A stretch of 64,000 nt of DNA from a phage: the sequence record PQ536907.1. The stretch is one strand, 5' to 3'. A program made the position numbers and the translations under genes. The notes under the pieces are model-generated. The model was not told the DNA's origin. It saw only the letters and a list, made by a program, of their open reading frames with translations, and did not search any database. Below, in pieces: positions 1 to 58,801 of this stretch (position 1 is its first letter; every line of letters begins with the position of its first letter).

Positions 1-1546
1 CGAAGATATTTGGTTTAAGTGATGTCGATACGAAGTTCTTGAAATAGAACATTTTGTTTTCAATGTTATGACGCAAAGTTTTAAAGGTAACTTCTTGTCC
101 ACGGTAAAGTGTAGTTCCTGGAGGAAGAACTGATCCTTTGGCAAAGGCAGAATCTAACGTCTCGATGTGATTAATAGCTCTTTCCATGTATTCTTCACGG
201 GTAGAATCTGGTTTACCCAAAAGGAACGAGTTCATTTCAACATATGAATCTGCACAATAATCTTCAATTACATCAGATTCAGCCTGAGTCAGTCCTTTTG
301 GAGTTACTTCGGTGCTTGCGTATTCATATGCCTGAGCAGCAGATTCATTAATCAATTTATAAATGCCATTCATTACAAATTGAATAATAGCTGTCTTTTC
401 ATCTGATGTAGCTTTAGAATCTTTAACTAAATCATTGATAATTTTCTTAATAACATCAAAGCTATTAGAAATATTAATGTCAGCAAGATCGCTTAAAATT
501 TTATCAGTTTTATAATCAAAGAATTCTTTATTCTTTAAATATTCTTGAGAACCTTGATATGTTATATCGCTCTGCAGCTTGATAGATGGATCGCGTAAAC
601 GTGCATGGGTCAATGCAATATGATTTCGGAAACTTTCTAGTTCATAATCATTAGATTTAAAACGAGAAGCACTTCTCATACCACCGATAGCTCCTTTGCT
701 GAAGTTTGAACCAATCTGGATAACGCCAGAGTTCATTGGTCCTTCTGCTTTATATACCGGAACTTTAGATTCAAACTCTTGATATTTCTTGGCAGCGAAG
801 CTATCACCCTGAAGTGAAGCATCAACAGTAGAATATTGAGCTTGTGCTGCTAATCGACGACTAATTTTAGTTTTCTGAATAACAGCTTGATCAGTGCGCT
901 TATCATTTTCTAAAGCAATAGAAGCAGCAACAGCGACAGCTTTAGGAACAGCATTACCTGTTTTAACGTCTACATAAACATCACCAACCTTTGATTCAAC
1001 TTTTGTGAATAACTCAGTTGAAATAGGAGGTACACCTGGAATGTCTTCTAAATTGGCATTTTTACGGTAAACCATAATATATGCATATTTTTTATCATAG
1101 TCCCAGATTTCCTTTAAAAGAACATATCGACCTGCTCCCTTAGTACGTACTAAACGGTCAGCAATAACTTGCATTTGACGAGCTGCGCCATTTGTTTTAC
1201 TTTTTAGTACGCGGAATAGGCATGCGTCGATTTTATACTGTTTCATTGTTTGAAGAGCAGTATCAAAAACAGCATTAATGACGCCAATTGGATTTCCACC
1301 CAAGTTTCTAAGCTTAACCAGCGATAATTTCTCGTTGACACCTATCATTACGATATGCATCATTTTATCGCCCGGCTTAACGTTTTTATTTGTATCACCA
1401 CCGGAGGTGTATGTACAAAATCTAAATCCAGGAAGCACGCTTTCTTCGCCGACTTGAATAGCAAAAATTTGTGGTATTTTATGCTTAGGATTTAAGTTAA
1501 CAACCGGCGCCGAAGCGCCGTCAAATAATTCTGTAATAAGTTCCAT
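1..1546 (-). CDS. Alt-like ADP-ribosyltransferase paralog, N-terminal ~515 codons (3' end lies beyond window start)
   Basis: Minus-strand ORF starting ATG at 1546, 3 nt after the alt stop; translation MELITELFDGASAPVVNLNPKHKIPQIF... shares blocks with Alt (CTYTSGGDTN, GDKMMHIV, YKIDAC, GRYVLLKE.WDYDKKYAY, LEDIPGVP.ISTELFTKVESKVGDVY, LYRGQ, MFYFKNFVSTSL). Confidence 0.8.
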   Translation of the reverse strand, partial: MELITELFDGASAPVVNLNPKHKIPQIFAIQVGEESVLPGFRFCTYTSGGDTNKNVKPGDKMMHIVMIGVNEKLSLVKLRNLGGNPIGVINAVFDTALQTMKQYKIDACLFRVLKSKTNGAARQMQVIADRLVRTKGAGRYVLLKEIWDYDKKYAYIMVYRKNANLEDIPGVPPISTELFTKVESKVGDVYVDVKTGNAVPKAVAVAASIALENDKRTDQAVIQKTKISRRLAAQAQYSTVDASLQGDSFAAKKYQEFESKVPVYKAEGPMNSGVIQIGSNFSKGAIGGMRSASRFKSNDYELESFRNHIALTHARLRDPSIKLQSDITYQGSQEYLKNKEFFDYKTDKILSDLADINISNSFDVIKKIINDLVKDSKATSDEKTAIIQFVMNGIYKLINESAAQAYEYASTEVTPKGLTQAESDVIEDYCADSYVEMNSFLLGKPDSTREEYMERAINHIETLDSAFAKGSVLPPGTTLYRGQEVTFKTLRHNIENKMFYFKNFVSTSLKPNIF

Positions 1547-1549
1547 GAT

Positions 1550-3643
1550 TTATCCTTGAACGAACTTGTAAGGCATGTTTGTAATATCTATGCAAGACGC
1601 AATAATTCCAAGAGATGATTCTACTTTCTGTTTAACGTTTGATGAAACAAATGATGCAAAGTCAACTCTGTCTTCTACTTCAATATCACCTGTCATTGCA
1701 ACTACTTCACCGGTTTCCATTAAATGGTCTCCGTCATAGATTACCGATTCGGTGAGCTCTTCCGTAGTCATAACTTCAGCTTGAATGAGTTTTGTATTAT
1801 TAGATGTTGTTCCGTCATTATTAGAAGCATCAGTTATTTTATTAACTTTGACCATCAATCCACGCGGTAGAATAACTTCAGCTTCTGTTGCTATTCCGAG
1901 ACTTCCTGGATATACAACATTAACTTTATGAGCTCCATCAATTGCCCATCCTATTTGAACTTTAACGTATTCAGGATTTTCTTTATACGCTCTTATTTCG
2001 TTTGGATTAATAGTTATTCCTTCTTCATTTTTATCAACTGTCAATTCATTACGAGCTTCTGGTTCTAAAAGACCAATACCAGCATGTGTAATTCCAAAAC
2101 GCCCAAAAATGATAGGAGTTAAAGAAGTAGATACAAAATTTCTGAAATAGAACACTTTATTTTTAACTAGCGCTTCGTATATAGGAGCAGTCATACTTTG
2201 AGCACGATAAACTGTAATGCCTTCCGGTATGCGGTCACCATTTTCAAAAGCTGAATCTAAATTATTTATAGCAGATTCAATTTCTTTTTCACTCATTACA
2301 TCATATCGTTCTGGATTGTAACGACCTAAAAGAAGATTATTGATGTCAGTATATCCTGAACCACAATACTCTCTAATGCCGCGCTTTTGTGATGGAGTAT
2401 ATTTAGAACCATCACGGGCAATAGTAATATCAATCATTGGACCTGCACCAATTCCAGAAAAACTATAAATCATTCTTTTGAGGAATTTAGTTTTTGCTGC
2501 ATTCCAGGCATTTTTAGTTATTTCTTCCCAGACTTCATCTGGCTGCCCTTTACGAGTTTTATTATGTTTATCAAGCCAATTATCTTTATATTCTTCAAAG
2601 AGTTGATTAACAGCTGCTGCGTATTTCTCTAAACATTTTATTGAAGTAGTTGGTTCATTTTTAATCGCATTAAGAATTACATCTTTAATTTTTTCAGAAA
2701 CTTCATTAACCTCACTTTTTGAAAAGAATTTATAGTCATAATGAAGTTCATCTGCAGTTCCTTCAGCAATAATTTTTGCTGCCTTAGTTTTAGAAGCTAA
2801 TGAATTAATTCCAATTTTCATTTCTTCTGCTTCGGGAATTAAAGGTGCAGTAGCTGGTTTATTAAAATTAGCTGCTGTAGATTCATACTTCTGGAATAAT
2901 TCACTTTCAAATCTAGAAGATTCCAATGACTGGCTTTGTGCAATTGCTCTACGGGAAATTTTAACTTTAACGATTACAGCTTGGTCAGAACGTTTATCAT
3001 TTTCTTGTGCAATAGATGCTGCAATTGCCTCATTTTTGGTTACTTGGGCTCCAGTATCTTTATTGATATAAACATCACCGACTTTCGATTCAACTTTAGT
3101 AAAGAGCTCGGTACTAATTTCCGGAACTCCTGGAATGTCTTCTAGTGATACATTTTTACGATGTATAAGAATATATGCATACTTTTTATCGTAATCCCAG
3201 AGTTCCTTAAGAAGGACGTATCTGCCACCTGAACGACTACGGATAAGTCTATCAGCAATAACTTGAATTTGTCGAGCTTGACCAGCGGTTTTAGACTTAA
3301 GAATACGAAGCATACAAGCATCAATTTTATATTGACGCATTGTTTGCATTGCAACAGTAAAAACTGAATTGATATAATTAATTGGGCTTGGACCAAGACC
3401 TTTTAATTTAGCAATTGAACCTTTAGCAGTTAATGTAAAAGGAACGATATGCATCATTTTATCGCCCATTTTTAAATCGCGATTAGTATCACCTCCAGAT
3501 GTATACGTGCATAAACGAAAGCCTGGTTGTTCAATTGCATCATCAACATGAACTGAAAAAATTTGTGGTATTTTCTTCTTTGGATTTAAGTTTGTAATCG
3601 GAAGAGTAGTATCTTCGTCAAATAATTCTGTAATGAGTTCCAT
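1550..3643 (-). CDS. alt: Alt, packaged RNA polymerase ADP-ribosyltransferase
   Basis: 698-codon ORF (start taken at 2nd Met, MELITELFDEDTTLPITNL...), matches recalled T4 Alt; R / STS / E motifs (VYRAQS, FVSTSL, EAEVILP). Confidence 0.9.
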   Translation of the reverse strand: MELITELFDEDTTLPITNLNPKKKIPQIFSVHVDDAIEQPGFRLCTYTSGGDTNRDLKMGDKMMHIVPFTLTAKGSIAKLKGLGPSPINYINSVFTVAMQTMRQYKIDACMLRILKSKTAGQARQIQVIADRLIRSRSGGRYVLLKELWDYDKKYAYILIHRKNVSLEDIPGVPEISTELFTKVESKVGDVYINKDTGAQVTKNEAIAASIAQENDKRSDQAVIVKVKISRRAIAQSQSLESSRFESELFQKYESTAANFNKPATAPLIPEAEEMKIGINSLASKTKAAKIIAEGTADELHYDYKFFSKSEVNEVSEKIKDVILNAIKNEPTTSIKCLEKYAAAVNQLFEEYKDNWLDKHNKTRKGQPDEVWEEITKNAWNAAKTKFLKRMIYSFSGIGAGPMIDITIARDGSKYTPSQKRGIREYCGSGYTDINNLLLGRYNPERYDVMSEKEIESAINNLDSAFENGDRIPEGITVYRAQSMTAPIYEALVKNKVFYFRNFVSTSLTPIIFGRFGITHAGIGLLEPEARNELTVDKNEEGITINPNEIRAYKENPEYVKVQIGWAIDGAHKVNVVYPGSLGIATEAEVILPRGLMVKVNKITDASNNDGTTSNNTKLIQAEVMTTEELTESVIYDGDHLMETGEVVAMTGDIEVEDRVDFASFVSSNVKQKVESSLGIIASCIDITNMPYKFVQG

Positions 3644-3666
3644 CATATCCTCTCTAGTGTTTATTC

Positions 3667-3674
3667 TATTTATA
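3667..3674 (-). promoter_or_regulatory. T4 late promoter box TATAAATA upstream of alt, preceded by GC stem-loop (3682-3695)
   Basis: Minus-strand TATAAATAG about 30 nt upstream of alt ATG; hairpin aggcccgaaggcct just upstream. Confidence 0.5.
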
Positions 3675-3695
3675 AAATTAAAGGCCCGAAGGCCT

Positions 3696-3884
3696 TTAAT
3701 AATCTAGTGGTAAGAGAGTACGATATATTTCAAACTTTGGTCCTTTTTCATAGGCATCAAATGTTTCTGTAAATTTATTATAAGCGTATGCATCTACAAA
3801 TTCGAGAATGACTTGTGATACAGAAGTAGAAACATCTCCACCTTCTTTTTGAGCAATGACAATTGTTTCTAAGTAAGCTTTCAT
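3696..3884 (-). CDS. hypothetical protein (62 aa)
   Basis: ORF packed between ligase and alt, stop overlaps ligase start region. Confidence 0.5.
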   Translation of the reverse strand: MKAYLETIVIAQKEGGDVSTSVSQVILEFVDAYAYNKFTETFDAYEKGPKFEIYRTLLPLDY

Positions 3885-5344
3885 AGACCAGTTACCTCAT
3901 GAAAATCACCAAATACATCTTCGAATGTATTAGCTTTAGTTTTATCTTCACGTAAACGAATCGCAATCGGAAGAAATAATTTAACGTAATCAGTGCGGCC
4001 ATCAGATTTTAACCAACCGTTGCATTCGCACTCTAGAATTTTTCCAATATAATAATTTTGGTTTTCCATAATGCGAGTACGGTCAAGCTCATGTGATTTT
4101 ACGCCGGCTTTATCTTTTAAGCCTGAACCAGCATTTACTTTAATTTTTCCACACTCTGATTCAAGAATAAATCCACCTGCTTTAGTAGGGTCTTTACGGT
4201 GAGGATAAATTCCTACAATTTTTAAATCAACATCAATTACTTCTTTAAATTTATAGAGATTTTTTGAACGAGCATTTTCCCATAATCCATCGATATTTTT
4301 GAGAATAATACCTTCAAGACCTTGGTCAATATACTTTTTATAAATTACCTTAGCTTCATCTAGGTTATTTACTACTTGGTTTTCAATTAAAATTACTTTA
4401 TCATAGCCTGATGTCATTTGTTCTAGTTTAGAAAAACGTACATCATATTTTAAACGAAATGCTGGAAGACCGTATATTTCTACCAACGGAACATAATCCC
4501 AGACCTGAAACTTCATGCATTGAGCTTCTTTTTCTGAAATAGTTCCCTTTAAAGATTTATTAGCGATTCCATTAGAAGTAGTACGTGATTCAGCTACTTC
4601 AGCAAACTCTTTAGCTTTACTAATTTCAGGATAAGCATCAAAAAGAAAATCTAGGCCTTCTGGCTCCTTTTTAACTTGCTCATGGTATACCAATTCGCCA
4701 TCAATTAACACACCTTCTGGATGAATCTGGCGGGCTTCAGCGGTCATTTTGATTAACTCTTCCTTAAGAAGATCTAATCCTAGATATTCATTACCAGCTC
4801 GTGATAAAAGACGGACATCATCTAATTCATCACCTCTAACTTCAGCAAAACACCGAGCTCCATCTGCTTTTAATTGTGCAAAGGCTGGAAATTTGATATT
4901 CTTACTAATGCCTTTTTCATCATAAGAACTTGCGAGCATTTGAGGTTGTTCAGGAATTAAACCTGGCCAAACTTTGTTTGCAATAGATACTGAAGCACCA
5001 CATTCAAGGTCTCGCATCATCACTCGACGCAAAACTTCAACATCATCTTTTTTACCATCGGTGATATATCCAGATAATTCCTCAATTGCCGCATTTCCGG
5101 TCAATTTCCGAGTAGCTAACGTGAATTCAATGAAGTCAAGCATATCGGTAAGAGTCAACATTCCAAAACTCTGGGTAGCAATACCCGGTTTAGGCCATTT
5201 CTTGATATAATACTGTAACCCACGAGAATAAGTCAGACGATATACTCGTTTAAGCAATTCATTATCTTTATTCTTTTCAAGAATTGCTTGCTTCTGCTTA
5301 GTTGAACCAATAGATGCTATTTCGTTCAGAATTTTAAGAATCAT
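3881..5344 (-). CDS. 30: ATP-dependent DNA ligase
   Basis: 487 aa, MILKILNEIASIGSTKQKQAILEKNKDNELLKRVYRL... matches recalled T4 DNA ligase; adenylation lysine motif KADGAR. Confidence 0.95.
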   Translation of the reverse strand: MILKILNEIASIGSTKQKQAILEKNKDNELLKRVYRLTYSRGLQYYIKKWPKPGIATQSFGMLTLTDMLDFIEFTLATRKLTGNAAIEELSGYITDGKKDDVEVLRRVMMRDLECGASVSIANKVWPGLIPEQPQMLASSYDEKGISKNIKFPAFAQLKADGARCFAEVRGDELDDVRLLSRAGNEYLGLDLLKEELIKMTAEARQIHPEGVLIDGELVYHEQVKKEPEGLDFLFDAYPEISKAKEFAEVAESRTTSNGIANKSLKGTISEKEAQCMKFQVWDYVPLVEIYGLPAFRLKYDVRFSKLEQMTSGYDKVILIENQVVNNLDEAKVIYKKYIDQGLEGIILKNIDGLWENARSKNLYKFKEVIDVDLKIVGIYPHRKDPTKAGGFILESECGKIKVNAGSGLKDKAGVKSHELDRTRIMENQNYYIGKILECECNGWLKSDGRTDYVKLFLPIAIRLREDKTKANTFEDVFGDFHEVTGL

Positions 5345-57578: not shown

Positions 57579-58181
57579 TTATAGATTAAATCCTTCAAAA
57601 TCAAGAGTATAGATAGTGTATGTTGAATACTTTTTATACTCATATCTATCTGCAATTCTAAATACACTTCCAGCTGGTATCATTACTTCTTGTTCATCTG
57701 AAACTAATTCCATATTACGATAACGATGGCTATCCGGAAACTTAAAGTTTGGATTGTATTCTTTACAGCGTAGAGCTTTTATAGCATACTCCTGGAAATT
57801 GAATACCATAGGAGCTTTGAATTCAAAAATAACCTGTGTGTTATACTCTAAACCGGAAGCAAAATGTAGAGCTATATTTTTATCATATGAAGCTGATACG
57901 ACTTTATCAAATGTAATAATATCAATTCCTTGATTTAACACCTGCTTAGTCTCAGCTGGAACACCTCTCCAAAGAGGTTTATCGTTTGGAACCAAACGAG
58001 ATTTGATTATTTCATTTAACCAAGTATGGTCATCTGGCTTATTAGTAATACAATGAATTAAAAGTTCAATTTCAGATAAATTAAACCCTTCAGAAAGCAA
58101 TTCTTCACGAATAGAAGCACGCACCGATGCATCCATTGATTTTATTTTAAAATCTTTTAGTTGCATTACTGAGTATTTCAT
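57579..58181 (-). CDS. modA: ModA ADP-ribosyltransferase
   Basis: 200 aa; R / S-x-S / E-x-E motifs (LWRGV, VSASY, EQEVMIP). Confidence 0.85.
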   Translation of the reverse strand: MKYSVMQLKDFKIKSMDASVRASIREELLSEGFNLSEIELLIHCITNKPDDHTWLNEIIKSRLVPNDKPLWRGVPAETKQVLNQGIDIITFDKVVSASYDKNIALHFASGLEYNTQVIFEFKAPMVFNFQEYAIKALRCKEYNPNFKFPDSHRYRNMELVSDEQEVMIPAGSVFRIADRYEYKKYSTYTIYTLDFEGFNL

Positions 58182-58801
58182 TCAACTACCTCAATATCAT
58201 AAACTTTAAATGTTCCAAACGAATCGTGTAATTTTTCTTTTGAAATAGAAGTTATTCTATACTTTCCAATTGGAATCATCCATTCTTGTTCACGCACAAT
58301 CATCATTAAGTTATCAGTACGCTCTGAATCTAGCCCATCAGTATCTTCATACGTGTACTTGAACTCAGTATTAGGAGAAGAAAGTATAATATCGCTGATA
58401 TGGTCAGAATAATTAAAAGCTTTATCAGTTTTTAAGCGAAGTATTATTTTAGTAAAATATTCAGCATAAGAAAAAGAACATGCTGTGAGTAAACTAGTAG
58501 TAAATGAATCTACCCTGTTCGTTGAAAACACTTCTCCAACTTGTAAATCTTTAATAAGTTCTTCTGTTGATTTTGATATACCACGATATAACTGATAAGG
58601 TGATTTAGTTAAATGCTTTTTAATGATTTTATTCAACTGCCGATGAAGAGCTTCATTCTTTTTGGCTTCCATACATTGCCAAAGAACAGACTGCTCAAAG
58701 TCAGTAAATTTTTCACAGACTTTTTTATACATATCATATTGAAAATCAACGCTTTCAGCTTTTATAGATAACTGTTCAACATCTGCAGGATTAATAATCA
58801 T
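58178..58801 (-). CDS. modB: ModB ADP-ribosyltransferase
   Basis: 207 aa; motifs LYRGI, FSTNR, EQEWMIP; tandem with modA. Confidence 0.85.
   Translation of the reverse strand: MIINPADVEQLSIKAESVDFQYDMYKKVCEKFTDFEQSVLWQCMEAKKNEALHRQLNKIIKKHLTKSPYQLYRGISKSTEELIKDLQVGEVFSTNRVDSFTTSLLTACSFSYAEYFTKIILRLKTDKAFNYSDHISDIILSSPNTEFKYTYEDTDGLDSERTDNLMMIVREQEWMIPIGKYRITSISKEKLHDSFGTFKVYDIEVVE

Follow-up and report, generated by a model that had tools for sequence, protein, structure and literature searches.

Tandem alt paralogs in a T4-like phage and the probable intact form of a gene decayed in T4

The tandem alt locus

At the left end of the phage sequence PQ536907.1 (64,000 nucleotides [nt]; this whole stretch of DNA is referred to below as the window), the minus strand of positions 1 to 3,700 consists of two long open reading frames (ORFs) in tandem. 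Here, we analyze them as two genes of the Alt family of ADP-ribosyltransferases (ARTs), namely, alt itself (copy 1, encoding Alt-1), which is the ortholog of the T4 gene, and a second, alt-like gene (copy 2, encoding Alt-2). By megablast, positions 1 to 3,700 are Tequatrovirus DNA, with 97 to 98% identity over the full length to the best matches, slur07, AdolfPortmann, CM8, RB27, and T2, and they matched 539 phage records, nearly all of them Tequatrovirus. In matched relatives, the two genes carry the RefSeq label "Alt-like RNA polymerase ADP-ribosyltransferase (x2)," and copy 2 is annotated as alt.-2 or as "Alt-like RNA polymerase ADP-ribosyltransferase." It is the same gene as the second Alt-like gene of T2, RB27, RB68 (where it is called alt.-2), slur07, CM8, and phiD1, which show 97 to 98% DNA identity over positions 1 to 3,700.

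An initial annotation of the window, made from the sequence alone, had described two adjacent minus-strand genes, alt at 1550-3643 and a second gene that starts at 1546 and leaves the window, separated by a gap of 3 nt. The ORFs and the sequence bear this out, and the stop codon of alt, the spacer, and the ATG of copy 2 (1546-1544) can be read directly (Table 1). From this ATG, the frame of copy 2 continues for 515 codons without a stop and is still open at base 2, and the gene thus extends beyond the window. The part inside the window is 99.6% identical to the 685-amino-acid (aa) protein of slur07, and the best family match, P0001 (685 aa, 772 member sequences), is 98% identical. In slur07, the complete 685-aa second gene is followed by a homolog of alt.-3 and then by the baseplate gene 54 on the opposite strand. 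Copy 1 appears in the ORF listing as 1550-3646 (minus strand, 698 aa), position 3643 being the second of two adjacent ATGs. Initiation at 3643 gives a protein that begins with MELITELFD, as does T4 Alt, and we favored this start because the GAGG Shine-Dalgarno motif lies 5 nt from it, versus 2 nt from the first ATG, and because it agrees with the ITE-6 numbering of the cleavage site described below. The in-frame ATGATG (3641-3646, minus strand) is also present in T4 and relatives.

The Shine-Dalgarno motif of copy 2, AAGGA, sits within the last codons of alt, and the six phages compared (the window phage, slur07, EO1, RB68, W143, and T4) have the same junction sequence. The 3-nt gap, the position of AAGGA in the end of alt, and the identity of the junction in all six phages make translational coupling of copy 2 to alt plausible. 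Upstream of alt, a perfect TATAAATA is kept in six of six phages, T4 included, and its function as a promoter follows from established knowledge of T4 late promoters. Sequence comparison revealed no conserved promoter proper to copy 2. The space between alt.1 and alt also holds a conserved hairpin with a calculated stability of -13.5 kcal/mol (z = -3.7; none of 200 shuffled sequences folded as stably), which is likely the terminator of the upstream (alt.1) transcript and went unreported in a simple terminator scan. The hairpin lies directly before TATAAATA (3667-3700, minus strand), and this order of terminator and then late promoter is kept in the six phages, including T4.

We also considered a perfect TATAAATA inside alt (2263-2270, minus strand) as a late promoter for copy 2. 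This motif is located ∼720 nt upstream of copy 2 and is encoded by S-A-I-N-N codons. We rejected it as a promoter: ∼10 motifs of this type are expected by chance within the window, and the internal one is probably fortuitous, since it is missing from phages that have a T4-type alt allele and retain copy 2, for example, W143.

Table 1. Positions of the alt, modA, and modB features in the window
Feature	Position	Strand	Remarks
alt (Alt-1, copy 1)	1550-3643	-	697 aa plus stop; T4 Alt ortholog, mosaic allele
Second alt-like gene (Alt-2, copy 2)	1-1546	-	Codons 1-515 of ∼685
alt/Alt-2 junction	1547-1557	-	AAGGA 1557-1553, TAA 1552-1550, spacer 1549-1547; reads caAGGAtaaatcATG
GAGG Shine-Dalgarno motif of alt	3649-3652	-	5 nt before ATG 3643, 2 nt before ATG 3646
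TATAAATA, T4 late-promoter consensus	3667-3674	-	20 nt upstream of the first ATG of alt
GC-rich hairpin	3677-3700	-	aaaggcc-ttcg-ggccttt, then T-rich tract; between alt.1 and alt
Alt-1 divergent central part	1934-2911	-	aa 241-570; 13-73% identity to T4 Alt
Alt-1 ART domain	1754-2398	-	aa 416-630
Alt-1 catalytic Arg480	2198-2212	-	VYRAQ, aa 478-482; from sequence
Alt-1 S-T-S	2120-2137	-	FVSTSL, aa 503-508; from sequence
Alt-1 E-x-E	1859-1885	-	EAE, aa 587-589, in EAEVILPRG; from sequence
Alt-1 C-terminal cleavage site	1745-1759	-	ELTE/S, LTE-632; predicted by motif scan
Alt-1 C-terminal propeptide	1553-1747	-	65 aa; predicted by parallel with T4 Alt
Alt-1 invariant YDGDHLMETGE	1706-1738	-	Directly after the C-terminal gp21 site
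Alt-2 N-terminal propeptide	1529-1546	-	MELITE, gp21 motif I-T-E; motif scan; T4 Alt is cut after Glu6
Alt-2 N-terminal alpha/beta domain	827-1528	-	aa 7-240; shared with Alt-1
Alt-2 all-helical variable region	302-826	-	aa 241-415; secondary structure from AlphaFold2 (AF2)
Alt-2 ART domain, first half	2-301	-	aa 416-515
Alt-2 catalytic Arg	95-109	-	LYRGQ, aa 480-484; from sequence
Alt-2 S-T-S	17-34	-	FVSTSL, aa 505-510; from sequence
modA	57579-58181	-	200 aa; 198/200 (99%) identity to T4 ModA; phrog_832
modB	58178-58801	-	207 aa; 198/207 (96%) identity to T4 ModB; phrog_832

Architecture and signatures of Alt-1 and Alt-2

Alignment of the two products by BLASTP gave 240 identities over 535 positions (45%, E = 5e-133), far beyond chance, in agreement with the initial annotation, which had called them clear paralogs that differ in the middle. 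Identity was 53 to 80% over aa 1 to 240, fell to ∼17 to 20% over aa 240 to 430, and was 7 to 20% for two parts, the helical region and the stretch from S-T-S to E-x-E. The Pfam domain PF03496 (ADPrib_exo_Tox; gathering score, 23.4 bits) matched copy 1 (E = 2e-37, 128.8 bits), the partial copy 2 (E = 1.9e-13, 50.6 bits), and a full-length copy 2 ortholog (71.1 bits), and both copies matched PHROG 802 ("Alt-like RNA polymerase ADP-ribosyltransferase") end to end. NCBIfam yielded no match for any of the five proteins tested. No solved Alt structure was found among PDB sequences, where only distant toxin ART domains were matched (E ∼4e-4).

The R/S-T-S/E-x-E signature had been assigned to both copies from the start. 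The Arg and S-T-S elements are indeed present in both, but the E-x-E lies in the window for copy 1 only; that of copy 2 falls beyond base 1 and is known by proxy, from SEAEVILPRG in slur07 and in P0001. In the family alignment A2, R482, S507, S509, E587, and E589 are invariant, and their conservation reaches 90% or more among 59 diverse representatives. The AlphaFold model of P0001, a full-length copy 2 ortholog, had a mean predicted local distance difference test score (pLDDT) of 73 and was composed of an alpha/beta part (residues 1 to 240), an all-helical part (∼245 to 415), an ART part (∼416 to 625), and a low-confidence C-terminal tail, consistent with the ART fold of the R-S-E Alt/VIP2 clade. 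Judged by sequence, both copies are Alt-family R-S-E ADP-ribosyltransferases with predicted catalytic activity, and from the E-x-E signature, both would be expected to be specific for arginine. Bacterial R-S-E toxins (Vis, C3, Certhrax, and the enzymatic components of iota, CDT, and VIP2) show 14 to 26% identity to the Alt copies; they lack the Alt N-terminal domain and rely on secretion or binary delivery, in contrast to injection from a phage head.

The N-terminal domain common to the two proteins (N-domain) was modeled alone by AF2 with a pLDDT of 85.3 and a predicted template modeling score (pTM) of 0.82. In a library of 1.84 billion proteins, it was present in only 69 representative clusters. 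It occupied the N-terminus in the 59 longer representatives checked, of which 57 combined it with an ART domain and with no other Pfam domain. On the basis of these counts, we consider the N-domain to be an Alt-specific module and rejected the idea that it serves as a general delivery module for various effectors. All full-length Alt proteins (P0001 to P0120) carry the precomputed label PF26846, which presumably covers the N-terminal domain.

About 40 copies of T4 Alt are contained in the prohead core and are injected with the DNA, after which the enzyme modifies one of the RNA polymerase alpha subunits at Arg265, as well as various other host proteins, by ADP-ribosylation (PMC2988021, PMC9026906). 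T4 Alt is trimmed by the prohead protease gp21 at ITE-6 and, according to mass spectrometry, at LTE-619, with the loss of 63 C-terminal residues (PMC5694885). Our motif scan found ITE-6 and the exact MELITE N-terminus in both copies, and E6 is invariant in a 20-sequence alignment of the N-domain. At the other end, LTE-632 of copy 1 is aligned with LEE-631 of the copy 2 ortholog, outside the window, and E631 is likewise invariant; in both proteins, an L-x-E site is thus found ∼55 to 65 residues from the C-terminus. A block of the form S-x-YDGD-x-L-x-ETGE follows this site in both paralogs, with Y634, D635, G636, D637, E641, T642, G643, and E644 as invariant columns of A2. As YDGDHLMETGE is invariant although it lies inside the supposedly discarded propeptide, we suggest that it might have a role in targeting, tethering, or autoinhibition. 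Together, the shared N-domain, the gp21 motifs, and the single late promoter make it likely that copy 2 also encodes a packaged, processed, and injected ART.

Origin, distribution, and selection of the two copies

Copy 1 is the positional ortholog of T4 Alt (NP_049811, NAD+--arginine ADP-ribosyltransferase, an internal head protein): the flanks (alt.1, ligase gene 30, and the gene 54 side), the late promoter, and the hairpin are alike, and the two proteins have in common the R/S-T-S/E-x-E signature and both gp21 motifs. Copy 2 has the same architecture as T4 Alt, at 45% identity, and represents a separate paralog lineage. At the same position and behind an identical junction, T4 carries alt.-1 (NP_049810, 61 aa) and alt.-2 (NP_049809, 67 aa), whose products are near-identical to residues 1 to 56 and 62 to 117 of copy 2, not of copy 1. 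The T4 genes are broken and truncated and lack the helical region and the ART domain, whereas the gene is intact here and in ∼400 other records. The comparison with T4 Alt and the alt.-x products that had been proposed with the initial annotation thus identified alt.-1 and alt.-2 as the decayed N-terminus of copy 2. A note in the T4 RefSeq record describes them as the result of an old duplication, interrupted by a stop codon, that involved the first part of alt, and Nolan et al. listed them as paralogous duplications of alt along with a full-length alt duplicate, 44RRORF187c, in phage 44RR (Nolan et al. 2006, PMC1524935). The tandem alt genes had been annotated before, and their evolutionary origin is in the published literature; the novelty implied by the initial annotation did not hold, as the second gene is found annotated in hundreds of genomes.

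Type-specific megablast searches with the central region of copy 2 (window positions 2 to 829) retrieved 402 records, all at 90% identity or more, and 279 records, matched over at least 80% of positions 1 to 3,700, carried copy 2 along with a copy 1 of the window type. Since copy 2 was found in 402 of the 539 records, the T4 condition, with one working alt gene, is a minority state. Copy 2 is an intact 685-aa ORF in slur07, EO1, RB68, and W143 and is full length in every Alt-2 carrier examined. Among four orthologs (synonymous divergence [dS], 0.12 to 0.26), the ratio of nonsynonymous to synonymous divergence (dN/dS) was 0.04 to 0.06 overall and 0 to 0.02 in the N-domain. The overall values indicate strong purifying selection and rule out a drifting pseudogene. 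Between the paralogs, dS was saturated, reaching 2.2 in the N-domain. This value led us to reject recent gene conversion as the cause of the conserved N-domains and indicates that their similarity is kept by selection on the protein.

The tandem layout is likewise present in other T4-like lineages. We scanned the ORFs of 33 loci from diverse T4-like viral contigs with hidden Markov models of the N-domain and of the ART domain. One alt copy was found at ∼20 loci, and a tandem of two, often separated by the same 3 nt, was found at 8; a single locus (L034:2662-8931) had three tandem full-length copies with 3-nt spacers. Decayed second copies took the form of a T4-like remnant (L012:5941-8480) and of a split gene whose N-domain and ART domain lie in separate ORFs (L014:5908-10240), and an ART-only ORF lay beside alt at two loci (L038:5893-8874 and L039:5893-8873). 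In a neighbor-joining tree of the copies, which is crude and has no bootstrap support, the upstream copies of several lineages grouped with Tequatrovirus copy 1, and the downstream copies formed several groups of their own, none of them within the Alt-1 clade. At locus L008, identity to copy 1 and copy 2 is 68% and 31%, respectively, for the upstream copy and 33% and 49%, respectively, for the downstream copy. The grouping in the tree and these pairwise identities indicate that the two paralog lineages are older than the divergence of these phage groups.

Copy 1 is itself a mosaic. Its identity to T4 Alt is 72% overall, but it varies from ∼100% over aa 1 to 240 to 13 to 17% over aa 271 to 330, 23 to 73% over aa 331 to 569, and 83 to 100% from aa 599 onward. 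The dS between the two was 1.1 to 1.3 in the middle, versus 0.1 to 0.2 in the N-domain. This pattern of identity and dS bears the mark of recombination, with breakpoints close to the borders of the domains, between allele classes that are deeply diverged. In copy 1, the helical linker and the larger part of the ART domain are of an allele class other than that of T4, with the difference extending over residues ∼241 to 570. Megablast retrieved 338 records with the central region of the window-type copy 1 and 175 with that of T4 Alt, a ratio of ∼2:1 for the Tequatrovirus allele classes of copy 1. Both classes co-occur with copy 2, which in W143 stands beside a T4-type copy 1.

Possible roles of the second enzyme

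In the interpretation that we hold to be probable, the two genes are ancient tandem alt paralogs, copy 2 is the intact form of the gene that decayed into alt.-1 and alt.-2 in T4, and the two enzymes act as follows. Both genes would be transcribed late as one unit from TATAAATA upstream of alt; co-transcription is suggested by the late motif at that place and by the lack of a signal between the genes. Copy 2 would be translated from its own AAGGA Shine-Dalgarno motif at the alt stop, presumably in close coupling with alt. Both proteins would then become part of the prohead core, undergo trimming at their two ends, and be injected along with the DNA. The constrained N-domain and the presence of both gp21 motifs argue that packaging, trimming, and injection probably proceed for both as for T4 Alt. 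In the new host, each enzyme would mono-ADP-ribosylate arginines with NAD+, an activity predicted from the signature and the ART fold. Their host targets would overlap without being identical. Nonidentical targets are most likely in view of the 7 to 20% identity in the helical region and loops and of the separate conservation of the two lineages across T4-like lineages. Furthermore, the helical region and the long insert from S-T-S to the ADP-ribosylating turn-turn (ARTT)/E-x-E motif usually shape substrate choice, which favors nonidentical target sets.

Several points weigh against this interpretation. The last 170 codons of copy 2, with the E-x-E and the C-terminal cleavage motif, are known from near-identical orthologs only. 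Tripeptides of the L-x-E and I-x-E types are common (7 to 11 per protein), and conservation of a motif alone is no proof of cleavage. The gene is not required in laboratory hosts, given the good growth of T4 in its absence, and second copies have decayed repeatedly, as illustrated by the L012 remnant and the split copy of L014. Moreover, we found no functional study of copy 2 and no experimental data on it in the searchable literature, and translational coupling and distinct targets are features that we infer.

Copy 2 might instead be functional but redundant, i.e., packaged and directed at the same main target as Alt (Arg265 of the RNA polymerase alpha subunit), so that it would add dosage or robustness. 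This would fit with the common domain architecture, Arg-specific E-x-E signature, and processing motifs, with the fact that T4 and about one-fourth of the related records do without copy 2, and with the variation in alt copy number from one to three among T4-like phages. However, homogenization or loss would be the expected fate of a copy that is purely redundant, whereas the two lineages stay distinct across T4-like lineages, share 7 to 20% identity in the helical region and in the S-T-S to E-x-E segment, and include a copy 2 whose own sequence is under strong purifying selection (dN/dS ∼0.05). We thus regard redundancy as unlikely.

It is still less probable, in our estimation, that Alt-2 is made late but is not injected, and that it acts in the producing cell or is mainly a structural or core component of the prohead. 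The N-domain, MELITELFD, the L-x-E site, and YDGDHLMETGE are all shared with T4 Alt, a protein proven to be packaged and injected, and the catalytic residues of Alt-2 are intact. In line with a noninjected protein, the literature searched contained no virion proteomic data for copy 2, its most constrained part is the non-ART N-terminal domain, and the cleavage motifs are short and common.

That copy 2 is a decaying duplicate without a selected function, a pseudogene in waiting, is suggested by its remnants in T4 (alt.-1 and alt.-2), by the same remnant in L012, and by the two ORFs of the split second copy in L014, but this explanation is very improbable and is largely refuted by the dN/dS of 0.04 to 0.06 at a dS of up to 0.26, with a full-length ORF in every Alt-2 carrier examined, a central region retained at ≥90% identity in 402 records, and invariant catalytic residues.

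Apart from these explanations for copy 2, a fold search gave a weak and unconfirmed signal for a GNAT-like fold in the N-domain of the Alt proteins, which we treat as a lead only. GNAT motif A has the form [QR]-x-x-G-x-[GA] and occupies a strand-to-helix junction. The N-domain has KTNGAA (copy 2) or KTAGQA (copy 1) after the strand at 108 to 114 and before the helix at 122 to 136, and G120 is at least 90% conserved, with flanking positions that vary in distant homologs, as in KMKGQE. At E ≤ 10, no acetyltransferase matched the N-domain in Pfam, no GNAT was retrieved among PDB sequences with the profile of 20 N-domain sequences, and the searches yielded noise only (eS12, E = 0.5; YpM, E = 0.13). 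We see a slim chance that the N-domain, the part of the proteins under the strongest constraint, is more than a passive packaging module and has a GNAT fold that, although diverged, is still able to bind an acyl-CoA or to acylate a substrate. If true, this would make Alt-family proteins two-enzyme injected effectors, a property absent from the descriptions of T4 Alt that we found. GNAT domains were noted beside ART domains in phage polyvalent proteins by Iyer et al. (2017).

According to textbooks, T-even phages deploy three ARTs, namely, Alt, ModA, and ModB. This statement derives from T4, which lost the second alt gene, and most sequenced Tequatroviruses, T2 included, encode a conserved and probably packaged fourth ART. 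T4 Alt has also been reported to modify MazF. Interest in phage ARTs has recently risen with RNAylation by ModB and with anti-defense ARTs, and Alt-1, its two allele classes, and Alt-2 offer a natural comparison for how target choice is encoded. As the outcome of a genome scan, the tandem is an ordinary feature that was annotated already. The literature searches retrieved no study of the targets of the second enzyme, a gap that we regard as real, if modest.

The count of four ART genes in the window, made in the initial annotation, proved correct: they are alt, the truncated alt-like gene, modA, and modB. ModA and ModB had no Pfam match, PF03496 included, at E ≤ 0.01 and were identified by direct comparison with T4. 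Like Alt, the T4 ModA and ModB proteins are ARTs of the R-S-E clade that target arginines of host proteins; unlike Alt, they are small early proteins made after infection, are not packaged, and lack the N-terminal domain and the propeptides. Upstream of alt, the alt.1 homolog (3696-3884, minus strand) encodes a 62-aa protein of phrog_1976, a family of unknown function, and is kept in all relatives examined. It overlaps the end of the DNA ligase gene (3881-5344, minus strand) by 4 nt (ATGA).

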